A DNA stretch of 49,159 bases from Deltaproteobacteria bacterium. Lineage in GTDB: Bacteria; Desulfobacterota; Syntrophia; Syntrophales; Smithellaceae. Where the stretch lies: the NCBI GenBank assembly GCA_025355175.1, contig JANYAF010000181.1, forward strand, positions 1-49,159, given 5' to 3'. This document shows, piece by piece, positions 17,191-45,874 of the stretch. Positions within the stretch are counted from its first letter, which is position 1; each line of letters starts with the position of its first letter. The notes below the pieces were generated by a model that was given only the letters and a program-made list of their open reading frames with translations, did no database searches and had not been told where the DNA came from. Made by a program: the position numbers and the translations under genes.

Positions 17191-20100
17191 TTAAATCGTT
17201 ATCTGCTGAGTCTTTTCAGATTCGCTTTCGTGCTTGCCGGAATAGACCATACCGGTCCATCCATCTATACAGATGAAATCCCCCGCCTTTATTGTATGCT
17301 CGTCAATTTTCGCGTAGCCTTGCGACTCAAATACTTTTAGTTTGCTGAAGCCAACAACGCCGACCTTGCCTAACTGCGGAATCGTTACTGCGGCATGTGA
17401 AGTTCCTCCTCCTTTTGCCGTAAGCAATCCTTCAACTTGCAAAAGCACTCCAACGTCATCGGGAACCGTATCAGGACGCAACAGGATAAGGGAAGTTTTC
17501 GGTTCAGCGCCACGGAAGTATGTAATATCCCCTTCTGAATAAACTGCCCTGCCGCAAAGAGCGCCCCCGCTCACCCCTATTCCCATTCCCAGTACTGATG
17601 ATTGCAAGACATCGGAATTCTTAAAGTGCTTCAGTCTTTTTGATTTTATTTGAACCATTTCTCGAGTTTGCAGTATATATAGTTTATCTTTGTCCGGCCC
17701 TTCAAAAGTAAATTCAATCTCCTGATGATTAAAGCCTTTTTCATAAATAAGGATTTCCGCAAGCCGGACCAGTTCCGCATAGATTTCCGGGAATTTTGCC
17801 TCAAGTGATATTTCCTCATCGCGATGTTCGGAAATTCTTTGCTTTTCTGAAATGGGATATGTCTCCACAAGGCCTGATACTATATCGTGTCCCTGAACCC
17901 CAAAAATGAAATCTCCATAAAGGGTTACATCAGATGATGAACCTTTAGGATCGCGGGTAAAAATAACGCCGGAACCCGAGTGCTCATTTAAGTTTCCAAA
18001 AACCATCGCCTGGACGACAACAGCAGTACCCCATTCATCTGAAAGATGCATCTGGCGGCGATAAATCTTCGCCTGCTCAGAATTCCACGATGCAAATACC
18101 TGTTGCACAGCGTGCTTTAGCTGCTCGATAGGCACGTCTGTGAGCGTAACATTATTGTCCACCATGCCCTGCCGATAGGCAAAGGCGAGTTGTTTCATCT
18201 GATCAGGAAGAAAGCGGATCTTTTTAGCTACACTGTATTTATGTTTGAAGCTCTCCATAATGACATCGAAGAAATTACGATTAAGGCCATGGAACATACC
18301 CCAGGTTTGCAGAAACCGTCGGTAGCAATCCCATGCCGCCCACTGGAATTCTTCTTTTTCGCAAAGCCCCTGAGCAATTGACGTGTTGATACCGACATTC
18401 AAAAATGACTGCATCATTCCGGGAAGTGAGACTGCGGCGCCGCTCCGAACCGATAAAAGCAGCGGATTTTTGCTATCACCAAATTTACGTCCGGTCATCT
18501 TCTCCAGCGTGGCTATCTCTTTGTTTACTCTGACGGCCAGATCATTGAAGATGTATTTATCGCCATAAACCGCATCAAAACCCCGAAATACTTCTGTGGT
18601 GAAAATAAACCCCGGAGGAACACGGAAACCAAGGGAAACCAGCTCTTTGAGAAAATATCCCTTGTTACCCAGAAGAATTTGATTATCTAACTTTTTATCC
18701 TTCTTATAAATGGAAGTAAGAGACAGTTCCGGGTTATAGGACATAACAAGTTTAAGGATCCGCTTGTTGTCCTTAAATCTGTCCTGTTCCGCGATGAGGG
18801 TTTTAATGACTGCATGGACAAAGTTATCCAACACCTGTATACTGAAAGCCTCTGACATTAACGCTCGGATAAAATTCTCCGAGTGCTGATAAACAACTTT
18901 TTCTTCCTTTTGCTGGTTTGATTTGGCATCATCAGCGGCATTATGCGGGAATACCTGCCGAATAATAACAGGTAGATTAGTACTGTGCGCGTCGATGTAA
19001 TAATCGCGGAGAATATCCTGAATACCTTTGGAAATGAAGCGGAAAATATCTATGTATTGCTCGAGGGTGAACTGCCTGACAGTCAAAGCGCTGGTCACAT
19101 ATTTGACTTTAGCTACCAAACCCTCTGTCGCAATCCCTTCCAGCTCCATGGCATTGATATAGAGCCACAAATATGTATGGATCTTAGTGATTGTGCGCTT
19201 GGTAATAAATTTCAAATTCAACGATTGAATCAATTCTTCAAAGAGCATGGTAGCCAAGCTCTCCAACCTCAAAGATAGACCGACGGCCTCAAATTTCTCC
19301 TCATGGTATGTTCCATACATCGACGGAATACCCGCCGCAATGTGTCTTTTGTAATAGATGTTTTCATAGAACTTAGTCTTCTCGGGAGAAAGAATCCTGG
19401 CTTTTAATATTGATAAAAATTTTAAAATGACCGTGAGGCTCTTATAATGATTCTTTTTGCCCAACGCAATTTTAAGCGATAATATTTCTGATTTTGGGAA
19501 AGCGTTTACCGCTTCCAGATCTTTTAATAAATCCAGGTACTGGGGATAATATTTTTTATACAACAACTGGTAGAGGCGGATCATAAGTCCGGTGCGCTCC
19601 TGATCACGTAAACTCACTCCTTTAATATGGTGGAACTCTTTTTGCACGCGGGCTTGGTCCCATTCCAGAAACTTACGGGGATCACTTTGAACCTTAGCAA
19701 ATAAATATTTAAATGCTCTGTGCATATCGTCAAAATATTCACCGGAATCCATCACCTGTTCGTAAACCTCGGCAGGAAGATGTTTGCGCACAAATTCCTT
19801 TTCGCCGGAAAACCAGTATTGAAAAATATCCTCCACAAAATCCACCAGCATACTGTTGCTTTCCACGTGGGACTGTTTCCGCAGAAAGTAAACAAGCTTG
19901 TCATTACGTTTCGATAGTTCATCCACATTAGTGGAGACATCTCTTAATTCGCCTTCGGCACCAATCTCGGTAAAATATACCGGAAAGACCCGCAGGAGTT
20001 GTTTTACAAGATTGTATGCCGGCGCTATCTCGGCGTTAAGCAGGGCCGAAATATCTTTCTGGATAAGATCGGTATCGCGGACAAAAATACCGCCAATTCT

Positions 20101-21429
20101 CAAGTTGACAATTAAGGCCGAAAGCAACCTCTTTGTCCATCTGGGTTTCAAAGAAATAATTTCCAGCCAGGATCTTATGTTGGCAATATGGGCGGGATTC
20201 ACCTGAACCTGCCATTCCGCGGTAGCCCCCTTAATTTCCGGATATTGAAAACCATAAGCAATCAGTTCATCGATAAATGTATCTACAAGCTGATGACTGT
20301 TTTGATCGAAGACTTCCTTGGCCATCGTGGTGATGCAATCAATAATGGCACTGCTGAACTCACGCCGGGATTTGCTCTTTTTCAGCAACCCGAAAATTCT
20401 CTGTACAAAATCATCCAGATTATCTTTTTGCCCTTCCTGAAAAACCATTTTCAGGGAATAATTTATTTCTCTCAGAGTAGTGCTGTGAATATCGTTAAGA
20501 CCCGGAACACTCATAATACTAAACAAAAAGTCCAGCTTTGCCAGATGCTGACGTCCTTGGAGGGCTGAGGATTTCTCCAATTGGCATGCAACCTGCGAAT
20601 ATCCATTAACTATCTGGAAATAGTCCGGCATCTCCAGATACTTCTCTGTCCAGCCAATACTAGTGCTTTTTGGTTTCTGACGAAGGGTTTCCAGTTCTGT
20701 GAGACGGAGCCGCAAATGTTCATGACTCAAAGGCTCAATGTAGCGTTTGTAGGAATTGTTTGCATCTGCTGATTCGCCTTCATCCGCGACAAGCCAATCT
20801 GAAGGATCGGGTTGTGAAAGCCAGTGCTGATATGTAATTTTGAACATCCTGTAGAGCAACTGGTCAAACGCAGTAATATCAACATTGATATTATTCTCCA
20901 TAATGTAACGTGTAGTTCTTTTAAGATAGGTTGATGTCTTTTTAAAGATAGCCTCCTCCCCATCAGATTCGGCCAGCAATAAGCCGATGATCTCGGGAAT
21001 TAAAACTAAATTACGGGGAAGTAATTCATTGCTTGAAGCAAGGATAGTGTCGATGTAATCGAACAGATAGTGGATGGCGCTGTCTTTGATATCATCACTT
21101 TGCGGTAATTGGATAACATCAAGGTAAATCTTAAGAATTACTCTAAGAACTGTGAGCCCATCCTGATGATTATTGTAGATGTAGAAATCACCGATGGAAA
21201 TTGATTTCAACTCTTTTAGGACAAATTCCCAGTTGACGAACGGATGATTTAGTTCGATCAGCAGATCCTGCGTTTTTTTCTGCAGGCCATAATGACTTCC
21301 CACAACCTTAAGCAGGGGGGCATATTGCTCAGGTATGGCAACGTCTACAGCCGTTCTTTCGAGATTTACTTTCAGCGCAGACGAAACCCATTTGTCGCTT
21401 TTTTCATCGGCAATATTTTTCAAAGTCAT
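17191..21429 (-). CDS. 1412-aa PPDK/PEP-synthase-like phosphotransferase: unassigned N-terminal region of about 900 aa, ATP-grasp domain and swivelling phospho-His domain, with no PEP/pyruvate domain
   Basis: The C-terminal ~500 aa aligns by eye to PPDK domains: LGNKGYFLKELVSLGFRVPPGFIFTTEVF, NPLLLSVRSGAAVSLPGMMQSFLNVGIN, AVVVQAMVFGN..SGSGVIFTRDP, LYILQTR and catalytic LTAKGGGTSHAAVT. The ORF stops about 60 aa after the His motif. Confidence 0.85.
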   Translation of the reverse strand: MTLKNIADEKSDKWVSSALKVNLERTAVDVAIPEQYAPLLKVVGSHYGLQKKTQDLLIELNHPFVNWEFVLKELKSISIGDFYIYNNHQDGLTVLRVILKIYLDVIQLPQSDDIKDSAIHYLFDYIDTILASSNELLPRNLVLIPEIIGLLLAESDGEEAIFKKTSTYLKRTTRYIMENNINVDITAFDQLLYRMFKITYQHWLSQPDPSDWLVADEGESADANNSYKRYIEPLSHEHLRLRLTELETLRQKPKSTSIGWTEKYLEMPDYFQIVNGYSQVACQLEKSSALQGRQHLAKLDFLFSIMSVPGLNDIHSTTLREINYSLKMVFQEGQKDNLDDFVQRIFGLLKKSKSRREFSSAIIDCITTMAKEVFDQNSHQLVDTFIDELIAYGFQYPEIKGATAEWQVQVNPAHIANIRSWLEIISLKPRWTKRLLSALIVNLRIGGIFVRDTDLIQKDISALLNAEIAPAYNLVKQLLRVFPVYFTEIGAEGELRDVSTNVDELSKRNDKLVYFLRKQSHVESNSMLVDFVEDIFQYWFSGEKEFVRKHLPAEVYEQVMDSGEYFDDMHRAFKYLFAKVQSDPRKFLEWDQARVQKEFHHIKGVSLRDQERTGLMIRLYQLLYKKYYPQYLDLLKDLEAVNAFPKSEILSLKIALGKKNHYKSLTVILKFLSILKARILSPEKTKFYENIYYKRHIAAGIPSMYGTYHEEKFEAVGLSLRLESLATMLFEELIQSLNLKFITKRTITKIHTYLWLYINAMELEGIATEGLVAKVKYVTSALTVRQFTLEQYIDIFRFISKGIQDILRDYYIDAHSTNLPVIIRQVFPHNAADDAKSNQQKEEKVVYQHSENFIRALMSEAFSIQVLDNFVHAVIKTLIAEQDRFKDNKRILKLVMSYNPELSLTSIYKKDKKLDNQILLGNKGYFLKELVSLGFRVPPGFIFTTEVFRGFDAVYGDKYIFNDLAVRVNKEIATLEKMTGRKFGDSKNPLLLSVRSGAAVSLPGMMQSFLNVGINTSIAQGLCEKEEFQWAAWDCYRRFLQTWGMFHGLNRNFFDVIMESFKHKYSVAKKIRFLPDQMKQLAFAYRQGMVDNNVTLTDVPIEQLKHAVQQVFASWNSEQAKIYRRQMHLSDEWGTAVVVQAMVFGNLNEHSGSGVIFTRDPKGSSSDVTLYGDFIFGVQGHDIVSGLVETYPISEKQRISEHRDEEISLEAKFPEIYAELVRLAEILIYEKGFNHQEIEFTFEGPDKDKLYILQTREMVQIKSKRLKHFKNSDVLQSSVLGMGIGVSGGALCGRAVYSEGDITYFRGAEPKTSLILLRPDTVPDDVGVLLQVEGLLTAKGGGTSHAAVTIPQLGKVGVVGFSKLKVFESQGYAKIDEHTIKAGDFICIDGWTGMVYSGKHESESEKTQQITI

Positions 21430-33475: not shown

Positions 33476-34531
33476 TCATTCTGAACTTCCCTGGTGCTTT
33501 GGACATCTCCGGCAGAGAGGGTGCGGACGCGATTCAAAGGACTTTCGAAACTCCCTGTAGTAAGAACTCTTCCAAATAGCCGGCAGCGACTCATCGGCAA
33601 TGCAGCCGAAGATCAACTTCTGGGATTCGACTTCCTCGCCTTCGATCATACGGGACGATCCCATTGCCGGGATGTTAGTAAAAACACAGGGGGAGACATT
33701 TCCGCCCGACGAGACGAACAGGGCTCGGCGGGGATTTTCCGTACAGACCCGGCCTTCCACACTGGGCAAAACCAGATTGTAAAAGAGGCCAAGCCCTTTC
33801 GTTGCTGCTTCTTCCCCCAATTCATCGAAAAGTGATTTCAGTTCCTGGTATTGGGCCTGATTCGCAGGTGTTAAACGCTCGTTCCAAAGATTTTTGTGTG
33901 TGACAAAATCAAGGGTGCTGATGACCACCTGCTCTATCCCAATCCCGGCGAGGGCGGGGACGATCTTGGCAATGTCCGGCAGATGTGAGCGGAGTAGAAG
34001 ATAGGCAACACTGATGGTCGGCGTCAAAACCCGCAGCGCCTTTTTTTGCGCGGCAAGATCGGAGATAGCCTGAAGAATCCGGGTAAATTGCGTTCCGTGA
34101 CGCGCCAGATCGTTTTTCTCACCGATACCCGTCAGTGAAAAGGCGACATGATCGATACCGCTTTTGACAAGCTGATCAATTCTCCGGCGATTGAGTAACA
34201 TCCCGTTGGTGGTAGTTCCCACCTTACAGTCGGTCTTTTTAGCAAGGGCAATCATCTCGAAGAGGGTTGGGTGAAGAAAAGACTCACCCCATCCCTGGAG
34301 GTGGACCATCTTTGTATCGGCAATGACAGGAAGCAGCACCTTAAAGGTTTCTAGGGAAAGATCGCGGTTATCCCAGCAATTGCGATAAGCCGTCCTCGGG
34401 CAATAATGGCAGAGGGCGTTACATCGCGTTGTGACTTCGATCTGCATCCAATCCAACCGGGGCATAGTTTGCAGATCCCACCATCTCCTGCAGTGGCGAA
34501 TCAAAAAAGGTTGCCGTGATGCAATCGTCAT
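33476..34531 (-). CDS. radical SAM enzyme with a C-terminal SPASM/twitch-like Cys domain
   Basis: TTRCNALCHYCP (CX3CX2C), GWGESFLHP and TTNG blocks. C-terminal Cys set: C-TENPRRALFVSSGGNVSPC...GC...CRRC. The start is uncertain (34531, or the internal MPRLDW). Confidence 0.85.
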   Translation of the reverse strand: MTIASRQPFLIRHCRRWWDLQTMPRLDWMQIEVTTRCNALCHYCPRTAYRNCWDNRDLSLETFKVLLPVIADTKMVHLQGWGESFLHPTLFEMIALAKKTDCKVGTTTNGMLLNRRRIDQLVKSGIDHVAFSLTGIGEKNDLARHGTQFTRILQAISDLAAQKKALRVLTPTISVAYLLLRSHLPDIAKIVPALAGIGIEQVVISTLDFVTHKNLWNERLTPANQAQYQELKSLFDELGEEAATKGLGLFYNLVLPSVEGRVCTENPRRALFVSSGGNVSPCVFTNIPAMGSSRMIEGEEVESQKLIFGCIADESLPAIWKSSYYREFRKSFESRPHPLCRRCPKHQGSSE

Positions 34532-34558: not shown

Positions 34559-35140
34559 TCAGGCGCTCACGGTTTGGGGTTTCACCAAATACTTAGCACC
34601 GCAGGTTCCGCATTGGATCTCTACAGACCACTGATCGTTTGACGCCTCAGGCAGATCAATCAGGGACTGGCATCTGGGGCATTTTGTGGTTGATCTCTTT
34701 TGGATTACAGGTTGCACCGTAATCGGCTTTTCATCAACAGTTTGCTCAAAAGGTTGTAGCTCCGGGGCATGATGCCCGACGGGTTCTGCGGGTTTTGATG
34801 TCACGGGGCGGAATTGAAAGGACGACGCAACGGGACCTCGGGAAAGTTCTGTCTCTTCAGGGTGAATCAAAGCCATTACGGCTTGGCGGATCCGCTCGCT
34901 GTCATCCATACCTTCCAGAGACCTGAATCTTCCAAAATCCTCTTTGGAAAGCGTCAGCTTCACTTCAACCGTATTCGAATTGAGCAACGCCGCTTGAAGA
35001 TCTCCCAGAGTGGAAGCAATGGCCGCCATCCGTCCTGCCGCCTCCAGAAGCTGCGTTTGCAGCTTGCTGATCAGATTAATGGCGGGAAGATTTTGACCTT
35101 CGTAAGATATTTTTACATTTGCCAGATCGATCGTGCTCAT
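34559..35140 (-). CDS. hypothetical protein with a C-terminal MJ0042-type zinc ribbon and a possible RHH-like segment
   Basis: CPRCQSLIDL-x16-CGTCGAKYLV at the C-terminus, a Pro-rich linker, and VKLTLSKEDFGRFRSLEGMDDSERIRQAVMALI, which resembles a ribbon-helix-helix. GGGAG RBS at 7-nt spacing. Confidence 0.55.
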   Translation of the reverse strand: MSTIDLANVKISYEGQNLPAINLISKLQTQLLEAAGRMAAIASTLGDLQAALLNSNTVEVKLTLSKEDFGRFRSLEGMDDSERIRQAVMALIHPEETELSRGPVASSFQFRPVTSKPAEPVGHHAPELQPFEQTVDEKPITVQPVIQKRSTTKCPRCQSLIDLPEASNDQWSVEIQCGTCGAKYLVKPQTVSA

Positions 35141-35449
35141 GCCGTTTCTCCCTTGCTCAATGCCTTCCTGATCGGTGATGATGGAGTTATGCTTAATAAG
35201 TATTTCACTTTATTGCACAAAAGCCGCCTGGACTCAACATCCCCGGAATAGTCAGGAGATGGCAAGCTCCCTTCGCCTTTGAGCGCTGATCCTACTGCAT
35301 AATTTTGAAGATGTAAATATTTTTTTCCATTGCGTGGCCTGTTTTTTTAGATAGGGGCAATCCCCTTAAAATCATTGCCCCGCAGTAAAATGTTATCGTG
35401 GATACAACGGGGACAGGCGTCCTCTATTCGTTCCCCCCTTCTATTCTTC

Positions 35450-35478
35450 TTGACACACAAACCTCTTTTCATTATGCT
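35450..35478 (+). promoter_or_regulatory. sigma70-like promoter candidate for the AAA-kinase/STAS/HD-GYP operon
   Basis: TTGACA (35450-35455), 17-nt spacer, TATGCT (35473-35478). Confidence 0.3.
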
Positions 35479-35585
35479 TTCCGCGAAAAGATGGAGATTT
35501 GTCATATCAAACAAGAATGAACACACTCTTCGGCTTGAGCCTGCCGAAAGGTGTTTACTTTTAACAGCAGGCGTGAGGGTCCCCG

Positions 35586-37226
35586 GTGCCATTTAATGCC
35601 ATCCCCGCAGAAGATTTTCTAAACAGAGAACCCGAGCTAAATTATCTAAAGGGTCTATCCAAATTAAAGGCAAACGCCCTGGGCGGAGATGTGTTCCTTG
35701 ACGGTGCAAGGGGAATGGGCAAGACTGAACTCCTCAAGCAGCTTTACCGTATCCTTTTCTGGGAAAACAATGTCGTACCGTTTTACTATTCCTTCAAGAC
35801 GGCGAACCTGAAGGGAACCTATTTTGCCCAAGACTATTTCACCAGGTTTGTCAGGCAATATATCTCCTTCGTAAAAAAAGATCCTTCGCTCGCAAGTAAT
35901 GTGGCTGAGCCGCTTCAGCGTCTTATGCCGACAATATCTTCGCTCGGTTTGTACTGGCTGATCGACTGCATTGAAGACTTTCAGGGCCATGTAAACAAAA
36001 ATGATTTTTACTGGCAGCTCGTCGCGGCAATATCCGCCCCGGTCATGGCCGCTCAAAAAATGGGAAAGCCGGTTATCGTGATGCTGGACGACTTTGATGC
36101 GGCGGCGCACCTTTACGAGTCCAGCTTGGGCGATGCGCATGGTCTTATCAGCCTCTTCGGGGAATCGATGCGAAACCGCCTCTGCCCTCATGTGATCACC
36201 GGCTCGGCCGGCGCGCTTGAGACTGTATTCACAGACCATTCCCTCATCAGGATGACGGAGCGGATGCGGCTCGGTCCTCTTCCGGAAGACCTGGCCATTG
36301 CACTTTTCAGGGCTCATCTCACAAATCTGAAGATAACCTGCGCATCGGGCGTGCAGTTTGAATTCCTGGATATATTGAGGGGAAACCCTTTTTATATCAA
36401 GAACCTCGCAAAAGCAGCCTGGAAAATGCAGAAAAACGTGATTAATGAAAAGGATTTAATAGAATGTTACGGTTTTGAAGTATCCGATGGTGAAACTGCC
36501 TTTTATTGGGCTTCAGCATTCAGCCGTTATGTTAAAAACTCGGCACAAAAAAAAGCAATGCTGAAGCTCCTCATGCACGCGATTGAAAACGGAGGAATTG
36601 AAGACGGCAAAAGACTCGCCATGGTATCCGGCCTGGGCGAGACCGAGACGGAAACCCTTCTCGGCGCACTTACGACCTCAGGGATCATACGGGCCAAAGA
36701 TGCAGTCCTCCAGGATTTCATCCACTGTCTTTACATGAAGGAAATAGAGGGCAGAAACGCCAACGATGCGAGGGAGAAGATAGAGGCGAAATATATTCAG
36801 GAAAGAGAAGAATCGTGTTTTGAGATGGTAATCCCGATGAGTTCCAATGCGGAACTTGTGGTGGCAAAAGCTGTCGAACAGATTGGCAAAAATATGAATC
36901 TCGACGCCGAGTTTCTGAATTATTTACAGCTCGCGCTGATTGAGGTCTGCATTAATGCAATAGAACACAGCGGAAGTTACGAAAAAAAAGTCTTCCTTAA
37001 ATTCATCACCAGACCGGACAAACTCGAGATCATCGTAGAAAACTCCGGCAGGCCTTTCTCGCTCGAGTCGATCAAGGAAGTCCCCGTGGAAGAGAAGATG
37101 CGGCTGGGCATCAAGAGGGGCTGGGGGTACAAGCTTGTTCATAAGATTATGGACAGCGTGAAGGTGGAGAGGGTAAACGACAGAACGAGGGTTATCCTGA
37201 CAAAGAACATCGATAATGGTTCATGA
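35586..37226 (+). CDS. fusion of an AAA-type ATPase (PF01637-like) with an RsbW/SpoIIAB-like anti-sigma Ser kinase (HATPase_c) domain
   Basis: GTG start after GAGGG. FLNREPELNYL...GARGMGKTELLKQL (Walker A) and VIVMLDDFD (Walker B). The C-terminal ~130 aa, LALIEVCINAIEHSG...IIVENSGRPF...GWGYKLVHKIMDSV, match the anti-sigma factor kinase fold. Confidence 0.75.
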   Translation: MPFNAIPAEDFLNREPELNYLKGLSKLKANALGGDVFLDGARGMGKTELLKQLYRILFWENNVVPFYYSFKTANLKGTYFAQDYFTRFVRQYISFVKKDPSLASNVAEPLQRLMPTISSLGLYWLIDCIEDFQGHVNKNDFYWQLVAAISAPVMAAQKMGKPVIVMLDDFDAAAHLYESSLGDAHGLISLFGESMRNRLCPHVITGSAGALETVFTDHSLIRMTERMRLGPLPEDLAIALFRAHLTNLKITCASGVQFEFLDILRGNPFYIKNLAKAAWKMQKNVINEKDLIECYGFEVSDGETAFYWASAFSRYVKNSAQKKAMLKLLMHAIENGGIEDGKRLAMVSGLGETETETLLGALTTSGIIRAKDAVLQDFIHCLYMKEIEGRNANDAREKIEAKYIQEREESCFEMVIPMSSNAELVVAKAVEQIGKNMNLDAEFLNYLQLALIEVCINAIEHSGSYEKKVFLKFITRPDKLEIIVENSGRPFSLESIKEVPVEEKMRLGIKRGWGYKLVHKIMDSVKVERVNDRTRVILTKNIDNGS

Positions 37227-37249
37227 TAAAAATGCAAAGAGGTGCTTAA

Positions 37250-37612
37250 ATGAAATCAGTTCAATTCAGCGTGGCTTCAAGGCGCGAAGGAGACGCTGCA
37301 ATTATTTACCCCAAGGGATACCTGAACAATCTTTCGGGCGAAAATCTTGTCATTGAATGCGGCATTTACATCGGCAAGGGCATAACGAAAATCGTGGTGA
37401 ATTTCAGCGAGACGGACTTAATCAATTCTATCGGCATATCCATGCTTCTACAGATCATCGAAGATCTAAAGAACATCAAGGGCACGATTTGCTGTACGAA
37501 CATGTCCAAGTTGCTCCGCGACACCTTCGAGATGCTAGGTCTCATGCAGCATATGCTGGTTTTCCCGGCCGAAAGTGATGCATTAACATACCTTAAAACC
37601 GGAAAATTATGA
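37250..37612 (+). CDS. STAS-domain anti-sigma-factor antagonist (SpoIIAA/RsbV-like)
   Basis: 120 aa. VNFSETDLINSIGISMLL contains the phosphorylatable-Ser context (DLINS-IG). The tail LRDTFEMLGL is typical. Confidence 0.85.
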   Translation: MKSVQFSVASRREGDAAIIYPKGYLNNLSGENLVIECGIYIGKGITKIVVNFSETDLINSIGISMLLQIIEDLKNIKGTICCTNMSKLLRDTFEMLGLMQHMLVFPAESDALTYLKTGKL

Positions 37613-38799
37613 GCACGGAACTTAAAAAGGCGCTGTATAACATATCTGCCCTGGCAGACCTGGGACAGGCCATCACCTCTGAAAACGATTTCCATGAAAA
37701 GATTCAGTCGGTGCTTTATGTAATCACCGGCACATTTCTGGCGAATAAGGGCGCACTCCTCTTTTATGACAAACCCACAAACAAACTGAATACTCTGACA
37801 CAAAAGGGTTTTGCCCCGGCTGACCTGGACCGGCTCAACCCTGAAGAACTGATGTCGCTCGGCAGAAACGAACCTTACCTCATCGGAGACGACCCCGTCC
37901 TGGCAGTTGCCGGAGCAGAAATCCTGGCGCCCCTGTGGGTAAGGGACGAGTTTATTGGCGCTCTCCTTCTGGGCGGCAAATTAACTGTCGGCCCTTATAC
38001 ACTGGAAGACCTTGAACTTCTCAACGTCATTGCAAACCAGATCGCAATCGCATTGAACAACCACTCCCTTTTCATGGACCTTTCGGACAAGCTCGAAGAA
38101 AACCGGAGACTTTATGAAGAGATGAGGCATATCTACCACGGCACGCTCCAGGCCTTTGCCGCAGCGATTGATGCAAAAGACGCCTATACGAAAAACCATT
38201 CCCACCGGGTCGCGAAGTATTCAGCCGCGATTGCGCGTGAACTCGGATGGGACGAGCATGAGATAGAAGGCATGTACGTGGCGGGGTACCTGCATGATGT
38301 CGGCAAACTGGCGATCAGTAACACCCTGTTGAACAAGGTAACCCCCTTTACCCCGGAGGAACGCGAAGAAATAAGAAAACACTCGACCTTGTCCCACAGC
38401 ATCACGGCAAAGATAAAATTCCCGTGGAAAAACGTCGAGGATATGGTCTGGCACCACCACGAACGTCTTGACGGACGCGGGTATCCCGAGGCTCTCGCCC
38501 AGGAATCGTTGAGCGACGGGGTCAGGATACTCAGCCTTGCCGATTCGTTCGATGCGATGACTTCTCAGAGGCCCTACAGGGAGAAAATGGACGTGCAGTC
38601 TGCGATTGGCGAATTAAGAAAAAACTTGGAAAGTCAGTTCGATCATAAGGTCATGCTCGTATTCTGTAAGGTTCTGGACAAGGAAATAAAAGGCGAGCTG
38701 CCGGAGCCGGATATCCTGCCTCACCTCGACAGGGATTCGGACCTCTCCGTCATTTCCGCCCTGTTGGAAGGCATAATCGCAGAACTCTCTACGCCGTAA
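37609..38799 (+). CDS. GAF-domain HD-GYP phosphohydrolase
   Basis: ATGA overlap with the STAS gene. N-terminal GAF-like region, then HSHRVAKY, YLHDVGKLAI and HHHERLDGRGYPEAL (HD-GYP). Confidence 0.85.
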   Translation: MSTELKKALYNISALADLGQAITSENDFHEKIQSVLYVITGTFLANKGALLFYDKPTNKLNTLTQKGFAPADLDRLNPEELMSLGRNEPYLIGDDPVLAVAGAEILAPLWVRDEFIGALLLGGKLTVGPYTLEDLELLNVIANQIAIALNNHSLFMDLSDKLEENRRLYEEMRHIYHGTLQAFAAAIDAKDAYTKNHSHRVAKYSAAIARELGWDEHEIEGMYVAGYLHDVGKLAISNTLLNKVTPFTPEEREEIRKHSTLSHSITAKIKFPWKNVEDMVWHHHERLDGRGYPEALAQESLSDGVRILSLADSFDAMTSQRPYREKMDVQSAIGELRKNLESQFDHKVMLVFCKVLDKEIKGELPEPDILPHLDRDSDLSVISALLEGIIAELSTP

Positions 38800-38804
38800 G
38801 AGAA

Positions 38805-39596
38805 CTATAGCTGGACGACAATAACGGTTACGTCGTCATTCCCACCGTTCCGGATGGCTGCCTGCACCAACTCGTCGCACGTTTTCTGGGGCGGAGCATT
38901 TGCTGTAAGTATCTCCTCGATTTCATGATCCGTTGCAAGATCATGAAGACCATCCGTACAGAGCAGAAAAACATCCCCGCGCTCTACATTCTCCACCCTG
39001 GTAAATACTTCAGCCAAATCATCATAGCCCCCCAAGGCTTGCGTTAATATATAACCATAGTAAAGGCTGCTTTCATGCCCCGGTCGGACTTGACCTAGGT
39101 CGATTAAAGTTTGATTTTTCGTATGATCAACCGTCATTCTTTCAAATGAATTTTCCCGGTAGCGATAGATCCGACTATCCCCAATATGTGCAATGAGCGC
39201 TTTTTCATCTGTAAGCACCAACGCGGATAAGGTCGTCCCCATCCCGCGTAATTCTTTCTTCTCCTTTGCGGCATTGATAATGCGATTATGCGCCGACCAA
39301 ATCGCCTTCTCCAGTTTCCGCATTTTCAATTCAGGGTCATCCCCGATATTCTGAAGGATATTCTGAAGTAGGCAATCATCATGATAGTATGCCGCAACGG
39401 TTTCTTCGCAGGCCATTTTGCTGGCAACTTCCCCGGCCGCATGGCCCCCCATACCGTCAGCAACCCCAAAAAACATACCATACTTTTGCAGATTGTAATG
39501 ATTACAGCGCTGGTCAACAATTAAAAAACTATCCTCGTTGTTGCGCCTTTGAAGACCGATATCCGACTTTTCATAATGCCTGACGTTTTCGAACAT
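38805..39596 (-). CDS. PP2C-family (PPM) Ser/Thr protein phosphatase
   Basis: GLQRRNNEDSF, VADGMGGHAAGEVAS, LCTDGL and GGNDDVTVIVV motifs. It is convergent with the HD-GYP gene, with a 5-bp gap. Confidence 0.9.
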   Translation of the reverse strand: MFENVRHYEKSDIGLQRRNNEDSFLIVDQRCNHYNLQKYGMFFGVADGMGGHAAGEVASKMACEETVAAYYHDDCLLQNILQNIGDDPELKMRKLEKAIWSAHNRIINAAKEKKELRGMGTTLSALVLTDEKALIAHIGDSRIYRYRENSFERMTVDHTKNQTLIDLGQVRPGHESSLYYGYILTQALGGYDDLAEVFTRVENVERGDVFLLCTDGLHDLATDHEIEEILTANAPPQKTCDELVQAAIRNGGNDDVTVIVVQL

Positions 39597-39668
39597 ATAT
39601 TATTTTGTCCTTGTTCACTCAACTTTAGCACACGCTCCTGCGCTTCTATCTATTTTTCTGAAGATTTC

Positions 39669-40766
39669 TTAATGGAATTTTTTTGCTACTTCATAGAGTT
39701 CTTTTTCTATTTCAGTAAACGCATCAACGACGTCCGGATCAAAGTGGGTAGCGTATCCATTCTTGATCATGTCGACTGAAAGCTCATGCGGAAAGGGCTT
39801 TTTATACACACGGCGGGTAATGAGGGCATCATAAACATCGGCAACAGCCATTAACCGAGCAGCGATGGGTATATCATCACCCGATAATCCCTCCGGATAG
39901 CCGCTGCCATCCCATTTTTCCTGGTGTGAGTACGCTATTTCGCGCGCAAAAGTAAGAAACGAGGTGGGCGATTCAAGCCGGTTTTCTGCCGCAATAATTG
40001 CGTCACGTCCGTATGTCGTATGCTTCTCCATAATCTCAAACTCTTTAGGGGTCAGCTTCCCCGGTTTCAATAAAATATTGTCGGGAACCCCGACCTTCCC
40101 GATATCATGAAGAGGGGCTGATTTATAGAGCAGGTCAATGTTCTCGTCGGTCAAAAACAATTTAAATCTTGGATTATATTTCAATTTCATGGCCAACATT
40201 TTTACATACTGCTGGGTTCGCCTGATGTGGTTGCCTGTTTCACTATCACGCGTTTCAGCCAGAGAACCCATCGCGATCATGGTAACATCCTGTATTTCAA
40301 CGACCTGCTGCGTCCGCCGTGCTATTTCCTGTTCAAGGAATAAATTTTTATCGATTAGATAATCCCTGGAATCTTTTAATAGAATATGGTTCTTGATCCG
40401 GGCAAGCAGGATAGGTGCGCTGATCGGCTTTGTAATGTAGTCAACAGCCCCGAGTTCAAAGCCCCTTTTTTCATCTTCCACATCAGATTTTGCCGTCAGG
40501 AAAATGACGGGGATTTTCGCCGTTTTTGGGTCTTTCTTAAGGAGGCGACAAACCTCGTAACCATCCATACCCGGCATCATCACATCGAGAAGAATAAGAT
40601 CGGGTGGATCTTCCGAGGATGCTATTTTTAGGGCTTTTCCGCCATCAGTAGCATTTTTTATTCTGTAGGCGTCTTTGAGCAGCCTGCCCATTAACACGAT
40701 AATATCAGATGAGTCATCTACAAGAAGGAGCGTGTATCTTTTCGGAGATTCAGTCAGTTCGGACAT
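39669..40766 (-). CDS. response regulator with HD-GYP output (RpfG family)
   Basis: REC domain LLLVDDSSD...DLILLDVMMPGMDG...KS, then PLHDIGKVGVP and HQEKWDGSGYPEGL. Confidence 0.9.
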   Translation of the reverse strand: MSELTESPKRYTLLLVDDSSDIIVLMGRLLKDAYRIKNATDGGKALKIASSEDPPDLILLDVMMPGMDGYEVCRLLKKDPKTAKIPVIFLTAKSDVEDEKRGFELGAVDYITKPISAPILLARIKNHILLKDSRDYLIDKNLFLEQEIARRTQQVVEIQDVTMIAMGSLAETRDSETGNHIRRTQQYVKMLAMKLKYNPRFKLFLTDENIDLLYKSAPLHDIGKVGVPDNILLKPGKLTPKEFEIMEKHTTYGRDAIIAAENRLESPTSFLTFAREIAYSHQEKWDGSGYPEGLSGDDIPIAARLMAVADVYDALITRRVYKKPFPHELSVDMIKNGYATHFDPDVVDAFTEIEKELYEVAKKFH

Positions 40767-40833
40767 GACACCTCCGCAAATAGCAATAATGGTTTACTAA
40801 AAGGAATTTTTTCATGGATACTTATATGATATC

Positions 40834-42936
40834 TCACGTAATGTCATGGCCTTCACGAATTTTCTCAAATACCTGTTGCGCCCTTTGATAAACCGGACTG
40901 ATTGAAATGGCCTTTTGGGCAAATTGCTCTGCGTCTGAATATCTGCCGAGTCCCAGAGATGTTTCCGCCAGACCGCAATACAGATCCGGATAGAGCAAAT
41001 TGAATCGCTCCAGAGCGTATCCATGTACAATCGCTTCCGTAAATCTCTCCTGTTCTTTCAAAAGATTAAACAGATTCAGCCTGGCTTTTATATAATTCGG
41101 ATTCAATCTGACCGCTTCCGTAAAGCATATTTCTGCATCCTTGATGTGATCGAGTTTTTTATACAGGATCCCCAAAACATAGTGAATGTCCGAGTATTCG
41201 GGGAACGTGAATTTGTAATCTTTAAACAGAAGCACCAGAGCTTCCATGTTTTCTCTGGGGAATACTCCTTTTTCAACAATAGTCATAATATCATTCAGGT
41301 TCGGGCTGATACTCAGATGCGTTATAAATCCCTTGACGAGTTCATCAATCTGATCACTATTGCCAATGTAGGAAGAAAACAAGGGGAGTATTTTAGCAGA
41401 TTCATAGCCATGCATTGCAATAATATTTTGTCCGGCTTCAACCAGAGCCAGCAAATCTTTGTCGGACGGGTTTAATCGGCTGGCACGTTGAAGCATGCTC
41501 AGGGCAAGGTCATATTGCTTTTGCTGGCAATAGAGAACGCCTAATTTCAAAATAGCATCGCTATATCCCGGATTAATCGTGACGGCCTTTTCCAGTTGCT
41601 CGATTGCCTTGGGGATTTGCTTATTGCCGGCGTGGATGATCCCCAGATAATAATAAACATCTGCAAATGCTGGCCTCTTATCCAGAATATACAACAGATT
41701 TCTTTCCGCTTCATCATACTGACCGGCAAATCCCTGACTGATTCCCAACTTGATTCGCGCCTCTGTGTAATCGGGATTGGCATCGACCGCTTTCTGAAAA
41801 CTGCTGATGGCCTGCTCGATTTTGCACTGGCCTAAATGAATGACCCCCAACCGATAGTAAGCGTCCGCATAGGTTGGGTGCGTTTTCATCATCTTTACCT
41901 GTTGGGAAGCTGCCGAATCCCAAGAGAAAAGCCCCGGCAAAACCGTCAGCAGCGATACGGTAGCGACCTTTTCCAGCAGACGTGCGGTCCGCTTGATACC
42001 GTAAGGCTGAATACTCTGCCAGTCATTGACGCCTGTATTGGTGGTAAATCCGAGCAAATACCCGGAAGATGATGCTATTCTTGGTGTTTCCTCGGTGATA
42101 TAAATGAGTTCGCCAACCGGATAAGAGATGCTCAGAACCGGCTGTCCGATATTCTCTTCGATAATCAATTTGGATAATATCATTTCTTCTTTTTGAGAAC
42201 TGGGGTTGATCGTGGATAACACCCGATGGGAATGGGTGTGAGAACCAATAGCGATCTGATGTTGCGCCATTTCCCGAATTTCTTCCCAGGTGAGAATTTC
42301 CTTATCCTGCAACTCAAGGGCCGGAAATGCAACGTCGCAGGCTTCAGAAAGTTCGTTCAGCAGATACTTGGTATGCTCATACTGCTCCTGTCTCATCATG
42401 AGCAGAAAAAAGGCGATGGCATCCTTTCTCTGATCACCCATCGGAAATTGTCTGCCGCCAAAACTGATGAAAGGTTTTTCGCAGCGTTTGATGAGATAAG
42501 CAATGATGTCCCACCAGGACATCTGCCGGGTATTAACCATCTGGGTCGTCACAAACAGAATGGCGGGAACTTCATAGTATTTTAATATCGGATAAGCGAG
42601 AGTATAATTGTCACGATATCCATCATCGAACGTTATCACCACGCAGGGCGCGGATGTCTTTGGAGAAAAAAACCTCCCGTCCTTGTAGTGGTCAAGAAGA
42701 TCCCTTTCAGACATTACAAGCGTGTTGTTTTTTAGCCACTTGACCTGCCTGGCAAACTCATCTGAATTTAAACCGTAGACCCCGTCGTCAAAATCCGTGT
42801 AAAACAGAAAATCACTCGGTCGGATGCGATGATAATTCAGAATGATCAGCTTATTTCTCATCGGCAGGCGCTTGAACAGGTTGACGAGATTGGAATTGTG
42901 CAGGATATTGGCCAGAAGTGCTTTTTTTCCTTCCAT
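40834..42936 (-). CDS. polysaccharide deacetylase (NodB) domain protein fused to TPR repeats
   Basis: ILNYHRI, VITFDDGYRDNY and IGSHTHSH in the N-terminal half. The C-terminal half carries multiple 34-aa TPR units (YYRLGVIH..A..F.KA...NP). Confidence 0.8.
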   Translation of the reverse strand: MEGKKALLANILHNSNLVNLFKRLPMRNKLIILNYHRIRPSDFLFYTDFDDGVYGLNSDEFARQVKWLKNNTLVMSERDLLDHYKDGRFFSPKTSAPCVVITFDDGYRDNYTLAYPILKYYEVPAILFVTTQMVNTRQMSWWDIIAYLIKRCEKPFISFGGRQFPMGDQRKDAIAFFLLMMRQEQYEHTKYLLNELSEACDVAFPALELQDKEILTWEEIREMAQHQIAIGSHTHSHRVLSTINPSSQKEEMILSKLIIEENIGQPVLSISYPVGELIYITEETPRIASSSGYLLGFTTNTGVNDWQSIQPYGIKRTARLLEKVATVSLLTVLPGLFSWDSAASQQVKMMKTHPTYADAYYRLGVIHLGQCKIEQAISSFQKAVDANPDYTEARIKLGISQGFAGQYDEAERNLLYILDKRPAFADVYYYLGIIHAGNKQIPKAIEQLEKAVTINPGYSDAILKLGVLYCQQKQYDLALSMLQRASRLNPSDKDLLALVEAGQNIIAMHGYESAKILPLFSSYIGNSDQIDELVKGFITHLSISPNLNDIMTIVEKGVFPRENMEALVLLFKDYKFTFPEYSDIHYVLGILYKKLDHIKDAEICFTEAVRLNPNYIKARLNLFNLLKEQERFTEAIVHGYALERFNLLYPDLYCGLAETSLGLGRYSDAEQFAQKAISISPVYQRAQQVFEKIREGHDIT

Positions 42937-42958: not shown

Positions 42959-43675
42959 TTATCTTTCAGTGAGTTTGATCATAACTTTCTTGGCGCGTTC
43001 AAATATTTCTTCGTCCAAGCCGTGCAACCACTCTGTTCGTCCCTGCTTGATGTATATATCAAAGTAAATTATGAGAGCAGATAAAATACCATTTAAGCTC
43101 CGGATATCCATTTCCTCATCGGGGCGAAGGCATATCTCGCTTGCAACATGATTATCATCAAGCCGCTGTAATTTCTTTTCAACGGGCGAATCTGCCTGAT
43201 CTACTCCCCGGATTCCTTCCTCCGTATTAAACGGTACGCTGACCCATTTTGTAACCCTGGTCCAATTTAACCGCGTCTCCTGATTCTTTCGTCTATCTCT
43301 CCCTTGACGCCTTTCAATGATTTTCTCTTGGAAAAAATCCAATGAATATGAGTCCCTTCGATCGCTCTCTTCACGACGGTCGAAACCCGTTCTTTTAAAA
43401 TCATTCAGGAAATAGAAAGAAAAAAAGTAAAACGCCGATGCATTGTGTATTTTTAAGTCGTCAAAAAATATTTCTTTGAACGCGATTTTGGCAACGGAAT
43501 CGAAATTGTTATAGGCTCCCCATAAATAAGCGGTGATTGCCGAGATGTAATCGGCTCCCCCGATCGCCCCCATTATTGTTGCTTTGATCTCTTTTTTCGC
43601 ATATGGCGGTTTGAGGCGTTGAGATAAAATATCCTTTATCACCTCATAAAAATTAATTTCCTGTCCCATGCTCAA
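42959..43675 (-). CDS. hypothetical protein with an Arg-rich (D/E)RR repeat segment
   Basis: 238-aa ORF, 22 nt upstream of the deacetylase-TPR gene on the same strand. Its central segment is DRREESDRRDSYSLDFFQEKIIERRQGRDRRKNQ. I recognise no family. Confidence 0.5.
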   Translation of the reverse strand: MSMGQEINFYEVIKDILSQRLKPPYAKKEIKATIMGAIGGADYISAITAYLWGAYNNFDSVAKIAFKEIFFDDLKIHNASAFYFFSFYFLNDFKRTGFDRREESDRRDSYSLDFFQEKIIERRQGRDRRKNQETRLNWTRVTKWVSVPFNTEEGIRGVDQADSPVEKKLQRLDDNHVASEICLRPDEEMDIRSLNGILSALIIYFDIYIKQGRTEWLHGLDEEIFERAKKVMIKLTER

Positions 43676-43991: not shown

Positions 43992-45461
43992 CTAGGCGTC
44001 GAGGCGGTACCCCTGCTGTGTAAACAACTTCAAACAGACGTCAACCACCGTGGCGTCGTAGAGACTCCCCCTGTTTTCCCGAATCTCGTCCAGGGCTTTC
44101 TCAATGCCAAGAGAGGGCCGGTAAGGCCGGTGAGATCCCATGGACTCGACGACGTCCGCAACACCGATGATCCGCGCTTCCAAGAGAATCTGATCCCCCG
44201 AAAGTCCACGGGGGTACCCCGAACCGTTCATGCGTTCATGATGTTGAACGATAATGTCGGCAACGGGATAATCGAAGGCGATGCCTTTGAGTATCCCATA
44301 TCCGGCCTCCGTATGATCCCTCAAGATATTTAATTCGTTCTCGCTTATCATTCCCGGTCTGCTCAGGAATTCGGCGGGAACATAGATTTTGCCGATATCA
44401 TGAAGCATGGCGGCAATCCGGACGGCCTTGAGATGATCGTCCGTAAAATGCATTTCTTTCGCGATGGCGATGGCCAGTTCCGTCACCCGCTCCTGGTGAC
44501 CTGCCGTGTAGGGATCCCTGACTTCGATGGCCGTGCACAGTGCTCTGGTGATGCCGTCCATCACTTCGTCGGTTTTCCTTGATGAAATATCCTCAACGGT
44601 GCCCTCATAAAAGAGGTAATTGCCCCGGTCGTCATGCACGGCCCGGACATTCAGGCAAACCCAAACCTTGTCGCCGTCTTTTTTCACATACTGGGTTTCA
44701 AACCCCTTCACCCGGCCGTTCGCCTTCAGCAAATTCCTGAATACAAGGCGTTGCCTCGGATCAGCAAAAAGCAGCTCCTCCATGTTCGACGCGACGGACA
44801 TGAATTCTTCCGGTGAGTCATAGCCCAACATGCGGGTAATGGCATTGTTCGCCAGAGTATAGGTTCCTTCGGCCGTCGTCTGGAAAATACCCTCGACGGC
44901 GTCCTCGACGATGCTCCGGTATCTGGTTTCGCTCTCCCGCAGGGCCTCTTCCGCAATCTTGCGCTCTACAATCTCAAAGAGCAGGTCTTCATTGACTTTC
45001 TGTAGCTCTCGCGTTCTCTGGCGGACCTTTTCTTCGAGTATTTCCCGAGACCGGTGATCTTGCTTTTCCGCTTCTTTGTGAAGCGTGACGTCGGTTCCGA
45101 TGCAGAGGATCTCCGCAATCTCTCCTTTCTCATCAAGGACGGCCCGATTCGTCCACAGGACCCAAACTCTGCTTCCATCTTTCCGCATATTTTCATTATC
45201 ATGGGTCTCATATTGCGCCGGGTTTTTCGAGATGGCCACCATGAAGTTCGACATGTCCCGTCCAGACGATTCCATCTCCGGCAGGATCGTACCCCTTATA
45301 TTTTTCCCGATGATCTCTTCTTGGGTAAAACCGAAAAAGGTCTGTCCGAATGGGTTCATGTACAGGATCTTCCCTGTGCTACCGATCCGCAGGATGATGC
45401 TGTTGGCGTTCTCGATGAGATTACGGTACTCTTTCTCATGCTGTTTCAGATCGTTTTTCAC
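43992..45461 (-). CDS. PAS-PAS HD-GYP phosphohydrolase
   Basis: Two PAS blocks (YRNLIENANSIIL, YRSIVEDAVEGIF), then HQERV, MLHDIGKIYVP and QHHERMNGSGYPRGL. Confidence 0.85.
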   Translation of the reverse strand: MKNDLKQHEKEYRNLIENANSIILRIGSTGKILYMNPFGQTFFGFTQEEIIGKNIRGTILPEMESSGRDMSNFMVAISKNPAQYETHDNENMRKDGSRVWVLWTNRAVLDEKGEIAEILCIGTDVTLHKEAEKQDHRSREILEEKVRQRTRELQKVNEDLLFEIVERKIAEEALRESETRYRSIVEDAVEGIFQTTAEGTYTLANNAITRMLGYDSPEEFMSVASNMEELLFADPRQRLVFRNLLKANGRVKGFETQYVKKDGDKVWVCLNVRAVHDDRGNYLFYEGTVEDISSRKTDEVMDGITRALCTAIEVRDPYTAGHQERVTELAIAIAKEMHFTDDHLKAVRIAAMLHDIGKIYVPAEFLSRPGMISENELNILRDHTEAGYGILKGIAFDYPVADIIVQHHERMNGSGYPRGLSGDQILLEARIIGVADVVESMGSHRPYRPSLGIEKALDEIRENRGSLYDATVVDVCLKLFTQQGYRLDA

Positions 45462-45874
45462 AGTCTTTCATCCCTTCATAAAAACTCGCTTTTTGTGGAA
45501 GTCAGTATAGGAATTTCAGGCTTTTCTGTCAATTAAAACTTACCACAAGATGTGGGGTGCTGTGCCAATGACCCGCTCTATCCTGGACAACGGACGGGTC
45601 TTCGATGGACATCTTTTTATCCTTGCATTTATTAAGCAGTTGATACATGCTCCAATCAGTATAGGGCCTCGGAAAAATTGGGGAATTTGAACCATGAAAT
45701 ATAAAACCAATCCCGGGCACAGCTCTGCTACCTGAAGGACGATCATACCTGCGGCGCGGTTAACGAAAATAAGCCCCGCGAGATCGTCAGCCAACATCTC
45801 TCTAAGGAGGTGGACGAAAAGATCCGAGAGGAGATTCGCGCATGGGTAATCAATCGACCATTCAACTATACAAA

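Follow-up and report, generated by a model that had tools for sequence, protein, structure and literature searches.

A conserved cassette of an AAA+::RsbW-like fusion, a STAS protein and a GAF-HD-GYP enzyme suggests a partner switch without a sigma factor

Partner switching is the textbook means of controlling sigma factors, and the locus described here raises the question of what such a switch acts on when no sigma factor gene lies beside it. The locus is part of a stretch of 49,159 nucleotides from a deltaproteobacterium of the Smithellaceae (contig JANYAF010000181.1 of assembly GCA_025355175.1; hereafter, the window). An original prediction, made from the DNA letters alone, had described positions 35586-40766 as a sigma-less partner-switching module of five genes, built around an ATPase fused to an RsbW-like kinase and wired to HD-GYP enzymes. 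All five open reading frames (ORFs) were found at the coordinates claimed:

35586..37226, + strand, AAA+::RsbW-like fusion protein of 546 amino acids (ORF list, Pfam)
37250..37612, + strand, single-domain STAS protein of 120 amino acids (PF01740, 4.1e-9)
37609..38799, + strand, predicted GAF-HD-GYP phosphodiesterase of 396 amino acids (HD_5, 1.7e-36; GAF_3, 2.7e-6)
38805..39596, - strand, PP2C/PPM Ser/Thr phosphatase of 263 amino acids (PP2C_2, 2.2e-17)
39669..40766, - strand, REC-HD-GYP (RpfG-like) response regulator of 365 amino acids (Response_reg, 8.6e-27; HD_5, 1.8e-30)

The fusion, STAS and GAF-HD-GYP genes are an uncharacterised cassette that occurs in at least two phyla without a sigma factor alongside. 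This core unit, three genes on one strand, is smaller than the module first drawn; the PP2C and REC-HD-GYP genes are lineage-specific extras. We have little doubt that the three core genes form one functional module, and the cassette most likely controls a cyclic-dinucleotide second messenger, not transcription. The specific mechanism, a sigma-less partner switch with the GAF-HD-GYP enzyme as its output, we regard as slightly better than an even bet.

The core genes are closely packed. The STAS gene starts 23 nt after the fusion gene, with an AGAGG ribosome-binding site ahead of its ATG, and its stop codon overlaps the start of the GAF-HD-GYP gene as ATGA; both junctions, read in the sequence, are as first described. 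The overlap makes translational coupling of the STAS and GAF-HD-GYP genes probable. The fusion gene itself starts with GTG, preceded by GAGGG.

We surveyed related loci by scanning one genome per species, which returned 43 loci, 41 of them orthologous. The orthologues come from Smithellaceae, Syntrophaceae and Syntrophus metagenome-assembled genomes (MAGs), at 59-96% identity, and from Thermodesulfovibrionales, Nitrospirota, Ca. Sulfobium and Dissulfurispiraceae, at 45-64% identity; the window is essentially syntenic with one Smithellaceae MAG (L001). In nearly all of the 41 loci with enough downstream DNA, the order is fusion, STAS, GAF-HD-GYP on one strand, with identities to the window proteins of 50-99% for STAS and 56-98% for HD-GYP. 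The junctions are often 4-nt overlaps, and 4- to 8-nt overlaps or abutments also occur. One exception (L039) has a truncated GAF gene. So constant an order and orientation of three genes, seen in nearly all 41 loci, is far beyond chance. The Nitrospirota cassettes are flanked by ftsK and lolA upstream and by tsaD downstream, a stable core-genome position in that phylum.

The arrangement also extends to distant relatives. When only the ATPase module of the fusion (residues 1-410) was used as query, exhaustive searching by HMMER yielded 354 cluster representatives. The kinase domain was present in 66 of the 100 long representatives of this family, in proteins of about 550 or about 740 amino acids; the larger class carries an insert of about 200 residues, with no Pfam match, between the ATPase module and the kinase domain. 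We inspected the contigs of 11 kinase-bearing representatives with 28-40% identity to the fusion. A STAS gene lay directly downstream in 9 of the 11, and an HD_5 gene came next in all seven loci whose contig continues. The HD-GYP proteins encoded in these cassettes are orthologues of the one in the window, at 38-51% identity. The original prediction had proposed surveying homologues for linkage to STAS and HD-GYP genes; that test, once run, found linkage to STAS and GAF-HD-GYP conserved in nearly all 41 loci and in most of the distant relatives sampled.

Five of the 11 distant loci have a GAF-GGDEF gene directly upstream, in four of them PocR-GAF-GGDEF. A four-gene form, in which PocR-GAF-GGDEF, AAA+::kinase, STAS and HD-GYP genes follow one another with abutting or overlapping ends, was seen in L047 (3837-9260), L052 (3867-9972) and L059 (1616-6869). 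Its cyclases have an intact GG(D/E)EF motif and an RxxD I-site. In this form, cyclase and phosphodiesterase genes bracket the switch; the window holds the three-gene form.

The fusion protein divides into two parts:

35586..36806, + strand, N-terminal ATPase module, residues 1-407: P-loop core, lid with GxP, winged-helix-like region and linker helix (Pfam, Foldseek)
36807..37226, + strand, C-terminal RsbW/SpoIIAB-like GHKL domain, residues 408-546 plus stop codon (HATPase_c_2, structure match)

The C-terminal part matched HATPase_c_2 (PF13581) at residues 426-540 (4e-15), and a profile of 49 fusion-family members matched Bacillus subtilis RsbW (6m36, 1e-9) and SpoIIAB (1til, 0.0025). We compared an AlphaFold2 model of the fusion (mean predicted local distance difference test score 81.5, predicted template-modelling score 0.67) with the PDB by Foldseek. 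The C-terminal domain superposed on RsbW with a template-modelling (TM) score of 0.91 and a root-mean-square deviation of 1.7-1.9 Å, and on SpoIIAB with a TM score of about 0.78. The test of whether this domain resembles anti-sigma-type GHKL kinases thus gave a match in both sequence and fold. The family comprises 331 hits, mostly of about 549 amino acids and 52-95% identity, which the source annotations call only "ATP-binding protein" or "anti-sigma regulatory factor". NCBIfam gave the fusion RsbW/SpoIIAB matches only, all below threshold, and no curated family. The N-box residues E453, N457 and H461 and the G2 box R511-G512-W-G514 are present; the G1 position is N486 instead of Asp. Across the fusion family (n=50), hardly any variation is seen in the N-box Glu/Asn/His or in RGxG of the G2 box.

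The STAS protein has a predicted phospho-acceptor, Ser60 (nt 37427-37429), in the motif INSIGIS; in an alignment with SpoIIAA (1th8_B), Ser60 falls on the phospho-Ser. Among 39 orthologues, the residue is Ser in 37 and Thr in 2, and it is retained in the STAS protein of every distant cassette; an unlinked second STAS protein in L053 has no acceptor residue. Ser or Thr in every cassette STAS is what is typically seen at a position that has to bear phosphate.

The GAF-HD-GYP protein has intact catalytic motifs: HD at residues 229-230 (nt 38293-38298) and HHERLDGRGYP at residues 283-293 (GYP at nt 38479-38487). HD and HHExxDGxGYP are invariant in 36 orthologues and in eight HD-GYP proteins from distant cassettes. 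The window and distant proteins also have in common an N-terminal helix, LxxLxDLGxEIT, and a C-terminal tail, KE-x-x-G...P-x-I-x-P-x-L; in the window protein the conserved tail occupies residues 351-396. The nearest solved relatives are V-cGAP3 (5z7c, 1.6e-31) and the GAF-HD-GYP protein PmGH (4mcw, 2.3e-29). As the top solved relatives include one cGAMP-specific and one c-di-GMP-active enzyme, the substrate could be cyclic di-GMP (c-di-GMP) or 3'3'-cyclic GMP-AMP (3'3'-cGAMP). An actinomycetotal locus (L042, 89-2445) has a STAS gene and a gene for a stand-alone 158-amino-acid kinase on either side of a GAF-HisKA-HATPase_c histidine kinase gene. Because the GAF domain of this histidine kinase is of the same subtype as that of the window (2e-23), the GAF module is constant and the output domain variable across cassettes. 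Output swapping is also seen in L028 (11632-13234), where a STAS gene with a Thr acceptor is followed by a gene for an HDOD protein in place of HD-GYP.

The N-terminal part of the fusion is a P-loop ATPase. Its Walker A sequence, GARGMGKTELLKQL, lies at residues 40-53, with the P-loop proper at residues 40-47 (nt 35703-35726), and its Walker B sequence, VIVMLDDFD, at residues 163-171 (nt 36072-36098). Over residues 11-245, Pfam gave ATPase_2 above cutoff (1.7e-8) and AAA_16 (1e-5), both at residues 11-208, and a weak NACHT match (0.0025) that fell below threshold at 18 bits against 26.7. The N-terminal two-thirds of the model resemble ORC2 (1w5t), Cdc6 (1fnn), PABY2304 (2qen, TM 0.61) and SSO1545 (2fna, TM 0.57). 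Of 65 relatives with the kinase domain, 61 retain the Walker A Lys, all 65 the first Walker B Asp and 56 a second acidic residue; 60 have the GxP motif. In their motifs, the hhhhDD Walker B and the GxP, the fusion proteins resemble STAND NTPases. Pfam found no repeat domain in the 546-amino-acid fusion of the TPR, WD40 or LRR kind that serves as a STAND sensor.

The wider ATPase family is varied. Fusions of about 740-830 amino acids include P0139, P0142, P0152, P0172, the protein at L043 (8192-10402) and others; the Walker A of L043 reads GAGAGE, without the Lys. The remaining relatives, of about 590 amino acids, are kinase-less and have other C-terminal regions, in which an Mrr_cat restriction-endonuclease domain (P0178) was the sole Pfam hit. 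Their Walker B is hhhhDE as against hhhhDD, and one of them (P0166) has an unrelated gene context. The variety of C-terminal regions in the kinase-less relatives suggests that evolution has reused the ATPase module as an NTP-dependent switch to which different effectors can be joined.

The phosphatase gene is convergent with the GAF-HD-GYP gene, and 5 bp separate their stops, as the sequence had first been read. Its metal-binding motifs are readable in the translation (ADGMGGH, TDGL and NDDVT). The NCBIfam Stp1/IreP model scored 205 bits, below its cutoff of 230; the nearest structures are tPphA, PstP and Stp1, and the SpoIIE match is only partial and weak. A PP2C gene adjoins the cassette in 12 Syntrophales-type loci, either downstream and convergent or upstream and divergent. 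The phosphatase had been drawn as part of a partner-switching module. A PP2C gene is indeed adjacent, but it is of the Stp1/PstP/tPphA type, not of the RsbU, RsbX or SpoIIE type, and it is linked only in Syntrophales. The REC-HD-GYP gene neighbours the cassette only in L001, L002 and L025, the three closest relatives, so the plural in the description "wired to HD-GYP enzymes" goes too far.

The conserved functional residues of the cassette are the STAS Ser/Thr acceptor, the HD and HHExxDGxGYP motifs of the HD-GYP enzyme, and the Walker A, Walker B and GxP motifs of the ATPase. A sigma-less partner switch coupled to an HD-GYP enzyme, as originally proposed, came through three attempts at refutation and stands as the best reading, although its kinase chemistry is insecure. 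Several observations weigh against it. The G1-box position is Asn in 27, Ser in 20 and Asp in only 2 of 50 family members. Clustering of flanking ORFs found no phosphatase linked to the Nitrospirota cassettes, and the window PP2C belongs to a type that usually partners Hanks kinases. Some loci depart from the pattern: L038 has a histidine kinase and an NtrC-like regulator after the fusion gene instead of STAS or HD-GYP, the distant representatives P0188 and P0135 have no downstream STAS gene, and an HDOD protein stands where HD-GYP is expected in L028. The top solved relative of the GAF-HD-GYP protein, V-cGAP3, is a cGAMP-specific enzyme. Finally, gene linkage would fit either STAS or the kinase domain as the contact of the HD-GYP enzyme, with either regulatory sign.

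The G1 Asp of GHKL proteins contacts adenine N6. With Asn or Ser in its place in 47 of the 50 members, ATP-dependent kinase activity of the fusion is uncertain; of the label "Ser kinase" first given to the domain, the GHKL/RsbW fold and the HATPase_c_2 match hold, but the activity is not secure. The GHKL domain may instead be a pseudokinase that only binds STAS, in the manner of an anti-sigma factor, with the ATP or ADP state of the AAA+ module driving the switch and the GAF-HD-GYP enzyme still as output. The strong conservation of the ATPase Walker A and B motifs and the lack of a linked phosphatase in Nitrospirota, together with the G1 substitution, speak for this. We nevertheless think it unlikely: an almost invariant N-box and G2 RGxG would be unexpected in a dead ATP site, every cassette STAS has an acceptor Ser or Thr, and a PP2C gene is conserved beside the cassette in the 12 Syntrophales-type loci.

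Another explanation is a classical anti-sigma system, in which the kinase domain would sequester a sigma factor, or a FlgM-like regulator, encoded at a distance, and the HD-GYP enzyme would merely be co-expressed. The likeness of the domain to RsbW and SpoIIAB in sequence and fold fits such a system, and HptB-HsbR-HsbA likewise acts on regulators encoded elsewhere (bioRxiv 10.1101/2024.11.25.625174). To look for sigma factors we ran phmmer (E<=1) with four sigma sequences that served solely as probes; the probes work, because they detected two extracytoplasmic function (ECF) sigmas in other loci. The prediction that the window holds no sigma factor was upheld by phmmer across the 49 kb and by Pfam scans of the main ORFs. 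Nor was a sigma factor consistently adjacent when this was tested within 10 kb in the 43 loci: two had an ECF-like ORF, several kb off and not syntenic. The 16 further loci, including the 11 distant kinase-bearing ones, had no sigma-70-family gene. Moreover, the linkage to GAF-HD-GYP, with start/stop overlaps, persists even where the kinase proteins are only 28-40% identical, which is more than co-expression tends to maintain. We therefore consider a distal anti-sigma system improbable.

That the locus is an anti-phage or cGAMP-signalling island, with a STAND-like NTPase effector and an HD-GYP nuclease or phosphodiesterase acting in defence or cGAMP clearing, is very improbable: STAND-like ATPase motifs, kinase-less ATPase relatives with other C-termini (one an Mrr_cat nuclease) and a cGAMP-specific top solved relative speak for it, but PADLOC gave no match for the fusion, STAS, PP2C or neighbouring 193-amino-acid protein and only generic Cas3-HD similarity for the HD domain, sequence conservation is high, the loci examined have no patchy, island-like context, the GC content of the cassette is unremarkable, and the fixed ftsK-lolA/tsaD site in Nitrospirota, together with the lack of a PADLOC model, speaks against a mobile or defence element.

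For the sigma-less partner switch with a GAF-HD-GYP output, we propose the following mechanism. The GHKL domain would bind STAS as RsbW binds RsbV and phosphorylate Ser60. Dephosphorylation would fall to a PPM phosphatase, probably the neighbouring Stp1-like PP2C in Syntrophales and, in Nitrospirota, an enzyme whose gene lies elsewhere. Either STAS in one of its phospho-states or the kinase domain once freed from STAS would then bind the GAF-HD-GYP enzyme and alter hydrolysis, probably by contact with the subtype-specific GAF domain and N-terminal helix or with the conserved C-terminal tail. The outcome would be a level of c-di-GMP (or 3'3'-cGAMP) set by the switch. The ORC/Cdc6-like, STAND-like ATPase may supply a second input, as a nucleotide-dependent conformational or oligomerisation switch that gates dimerisation or exposure of the kinase domain.

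Where PocR-GAF-GGDEF lies upstream, synthesis and degradation may be under the reciprocal control of this one switch. A more specific version, which we consider doubtful, has the phospho-state of STAS, set by the AAA+::GHKL protein, toggle STAS between the GAF-GGDEF cyclase and the GAF-HD-GYP enzyme, while the G1 change may shift nucleotide preference, for example to GTP. If GTP were preferred, the switch would be linked to the guanine-nucleotide pool that feeds c-di-GMP synthesis. If the toggle were true, partner switching would act directly and reciprocally on cyclic-dinucleotide synthesis and degradation, without a transcription factor.

The surroundings of the cassette contain further features. 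The best consensus match to a promoter within 35000-41000 was the following:

35450..35478, + strand, candidate sigma-70-type promoter TTGACA-17-TATGCT, about 108 nt upstream of the fusion start (consensus 10/12)

Promoter and terminator scans gave match numbers not above shuffle expectation, so the candidate is weak evidence. Rfam had no match in the whole window at gathering thresholds, nor in 35100-35650 at E<=1, and a riboswitch or other RNA element in the 445-bp region upstream of the fusion gene was accordingly rejected. Divergent from the fusion gene lies a gene for a 193-amino-acid protein (34559-35140, - strand) with a zinc-ribbon-like CxxC...CxxC C-terminus and no Pfam or PADLOC match. 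It keeps its position in eight Syntrophales-type loci (43-97% identity), is absent from the Nitrospirota loci and may serve the cassette as an accessory in its own lineage. When the ORFs flanking the Nitrospirota cassettes were clustered, the neighbours were all housekeeping ones: FtsK, LolA, TsaD and BacA.

Beyond the REC-HD-GYP gene lie genes for a polysaccharide deacetylase-TPR protein of 700 amino acids (40834-42936, - strand) and a 238-amino-acid protein without a Pfam match (42959-43675, - strand). Both accompany Syntrophales cassettes: they lie downstream of the cassette in L001-L003 and L025, whereas in L007 and L011 they are upstream of it and share its strand. This linkage hints at an exopolysaccharide or biofilm output. 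The window is also unusually rich in c-di-GMP genes beyond the cassette: a PAS-GGDEF cyclase (5844-7868, + strand), a stand-alone HDOD protein (15344-16189, + strand), the REC-HD-GYP protein (39669-40766, - strand) and a PAS-PAS-HD-GYP protein (43992-45461, - strand), with three HD-GYP genes within 8 kb.

Farther from the cassette, a radical SAM/SPASM gene (33476-34531, - strand) is intact in the window; L001 and L002 have only short ORF fragments of it (67 and 151 amino acids) and L003 has no match. The fragments could be due to gene decay or assembly differences. A 1412-amino-acid protein (17191-21429, - strand) has PPDK_N and PEP-utilizer domains only in its last approximately 500 residues, its roughly 900 N-terminal residues having no Pfam match. 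There are two GAPDH-family genes (2708-3706 and 12584-13861, both + strand), one canonical, in a pfk-gap-pgk-tpi glycolytic cluster, and the other divergent, coding for 425 amino acids with far lower domain scores. Towards its right end (44001-48000), the window has a GC content of 0.51-0.56, compared with 0.38-0.46 across the first 28 kb, and two ORFs there (45902-46666 and 46967-47467) have no Pfam match.

HD-GYP enzyme regulation is poorly understood. To our knowledge, few non-sigma outputs of partner switching have been described, and those related to c-di-GMP act on cyclases. The cassette would give HD-GYP enzymes a defined protein partner and add a post-translational layer of control over cyclic-dinucleotide turnover. 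It would do so with a new kinase architecture, an AAA+ module fused to an RsbW-like domain and paired with an HD-GYP enzyme, sometimes also with a cyclase. Its carriers, syntrophs of the Smithella/Syntrophus type and Thermodesulfovibrionales, are key anaerobes of digesters and sediments, where aggregation and biofilm matter. Our full-text literature search returned no account of a STAS/HD-GYP partner switch or of an ATPase_2-HATPase_c_2 fusion, and a review of STAS-only proteins did not mention c-di-GMP enzymes. A Streptomyces report of a phosphodiesterase as an anti-sigma antagonist, considered as a precedent, proved unrelated, as it concerns the EAL protein RmdB.

The cassette is best compared with the RsbW-RsbV-RsbU/RsbX and SpoIIAB-SpoIIAA-SpoIIE systems of Bacillus. 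Common to them are an RsbW-fold GHKL domain (TM 0.91), a single-domain STAS protein with its acceptor at the position of SpoIIAA Ser58 or RsbV Ser56 and, in Syntrophales, a nearby PPM phosphatase. Unlike the Bacillus systems, the cassette has no sigma target, its kinase is fused to an ORC/Cdc6-like AAA+ module of about 400 residues, and its G1 residue is Asn or Ser. Its genes run from kinase through STAS to target; the phosphatase resembles Stp1/PstP and is linked in only some of the loci, and the linked "target" gene encodes an HD-GYP enzyme. The stressosome, in which two STAS scaffold proteins, RsbR with its N-terminal sensor domain and RsbS, act with the kinase RsbT, is not matched by a cassette with one 120-amino-acid STAS-only protein.

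For a STAS protein that acts on second-messenger enzymes, HptB-HsbR-HsbA is the closest precedent in function. The STAS antagonist HsbA has c-di-GMP enzymes as partners, the cyclases HsbD in Pseudomonas aeruginosa and CfcR in Pseudomonas putida (bioRxiv 10.1101/2024.11.25.625174). HsbR, however, is a REC-PP2C-kinase protein under a phosphorelay, whereas the kinase here is an AAA+ fusion in which Pfam found no REC or PP2C domain, and no Hpt gene adjoins the cassette. The enzyme targets also differ, being cyclases in the Hsb system and an HD-GYP phosphodiesterase here, and HsbR/HsbA act on FlgM and RpoS as well. Unlike the cassette genes, hsbD and cfcR do not lie in a three-gene operon with overlapping frames. 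In the SiaABCD system of P. aeruginosa, the kinase/PP2C pair SiaB/SiaA reportedly sets the phospho-state of the small protein SiaC, which is said to bind and activate the c-di-GMP enzyme SiaD. The partner of SiaC is described as a cyclase, not an HD-GYP enzyme, and SiaABCD has a kinase of a different family and no AAA+ module.

Individual parts of the cassette also have known counterparts. The fusion has the P-loop core, lid and winged-helix arrangement in common with archaeal ATPase_2 proteins (2qen, 2fna), ORC/Cdc6 and STAND NTPases. Unlike ORC/Cdc6 and STAND NTPases, it lacks a DNA-replication context and a C-terminal repeat sensor, and its effector is a GHKL kinase domain. We know of no description of PmGH or V-cGAP3 with a STAS or kinase partner. 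PmGH from Persephonella marina (4mcw) and V-cGAP3 from Vibrio cholerae (5z7c) have the same HD-GYP catalytic domain as the window protein, and PmGH also has an N-terminal GAF domain; compared with both, the window protein is distinguished by its subtype-specific N-terminal helix and its conserved C-terminal tail.

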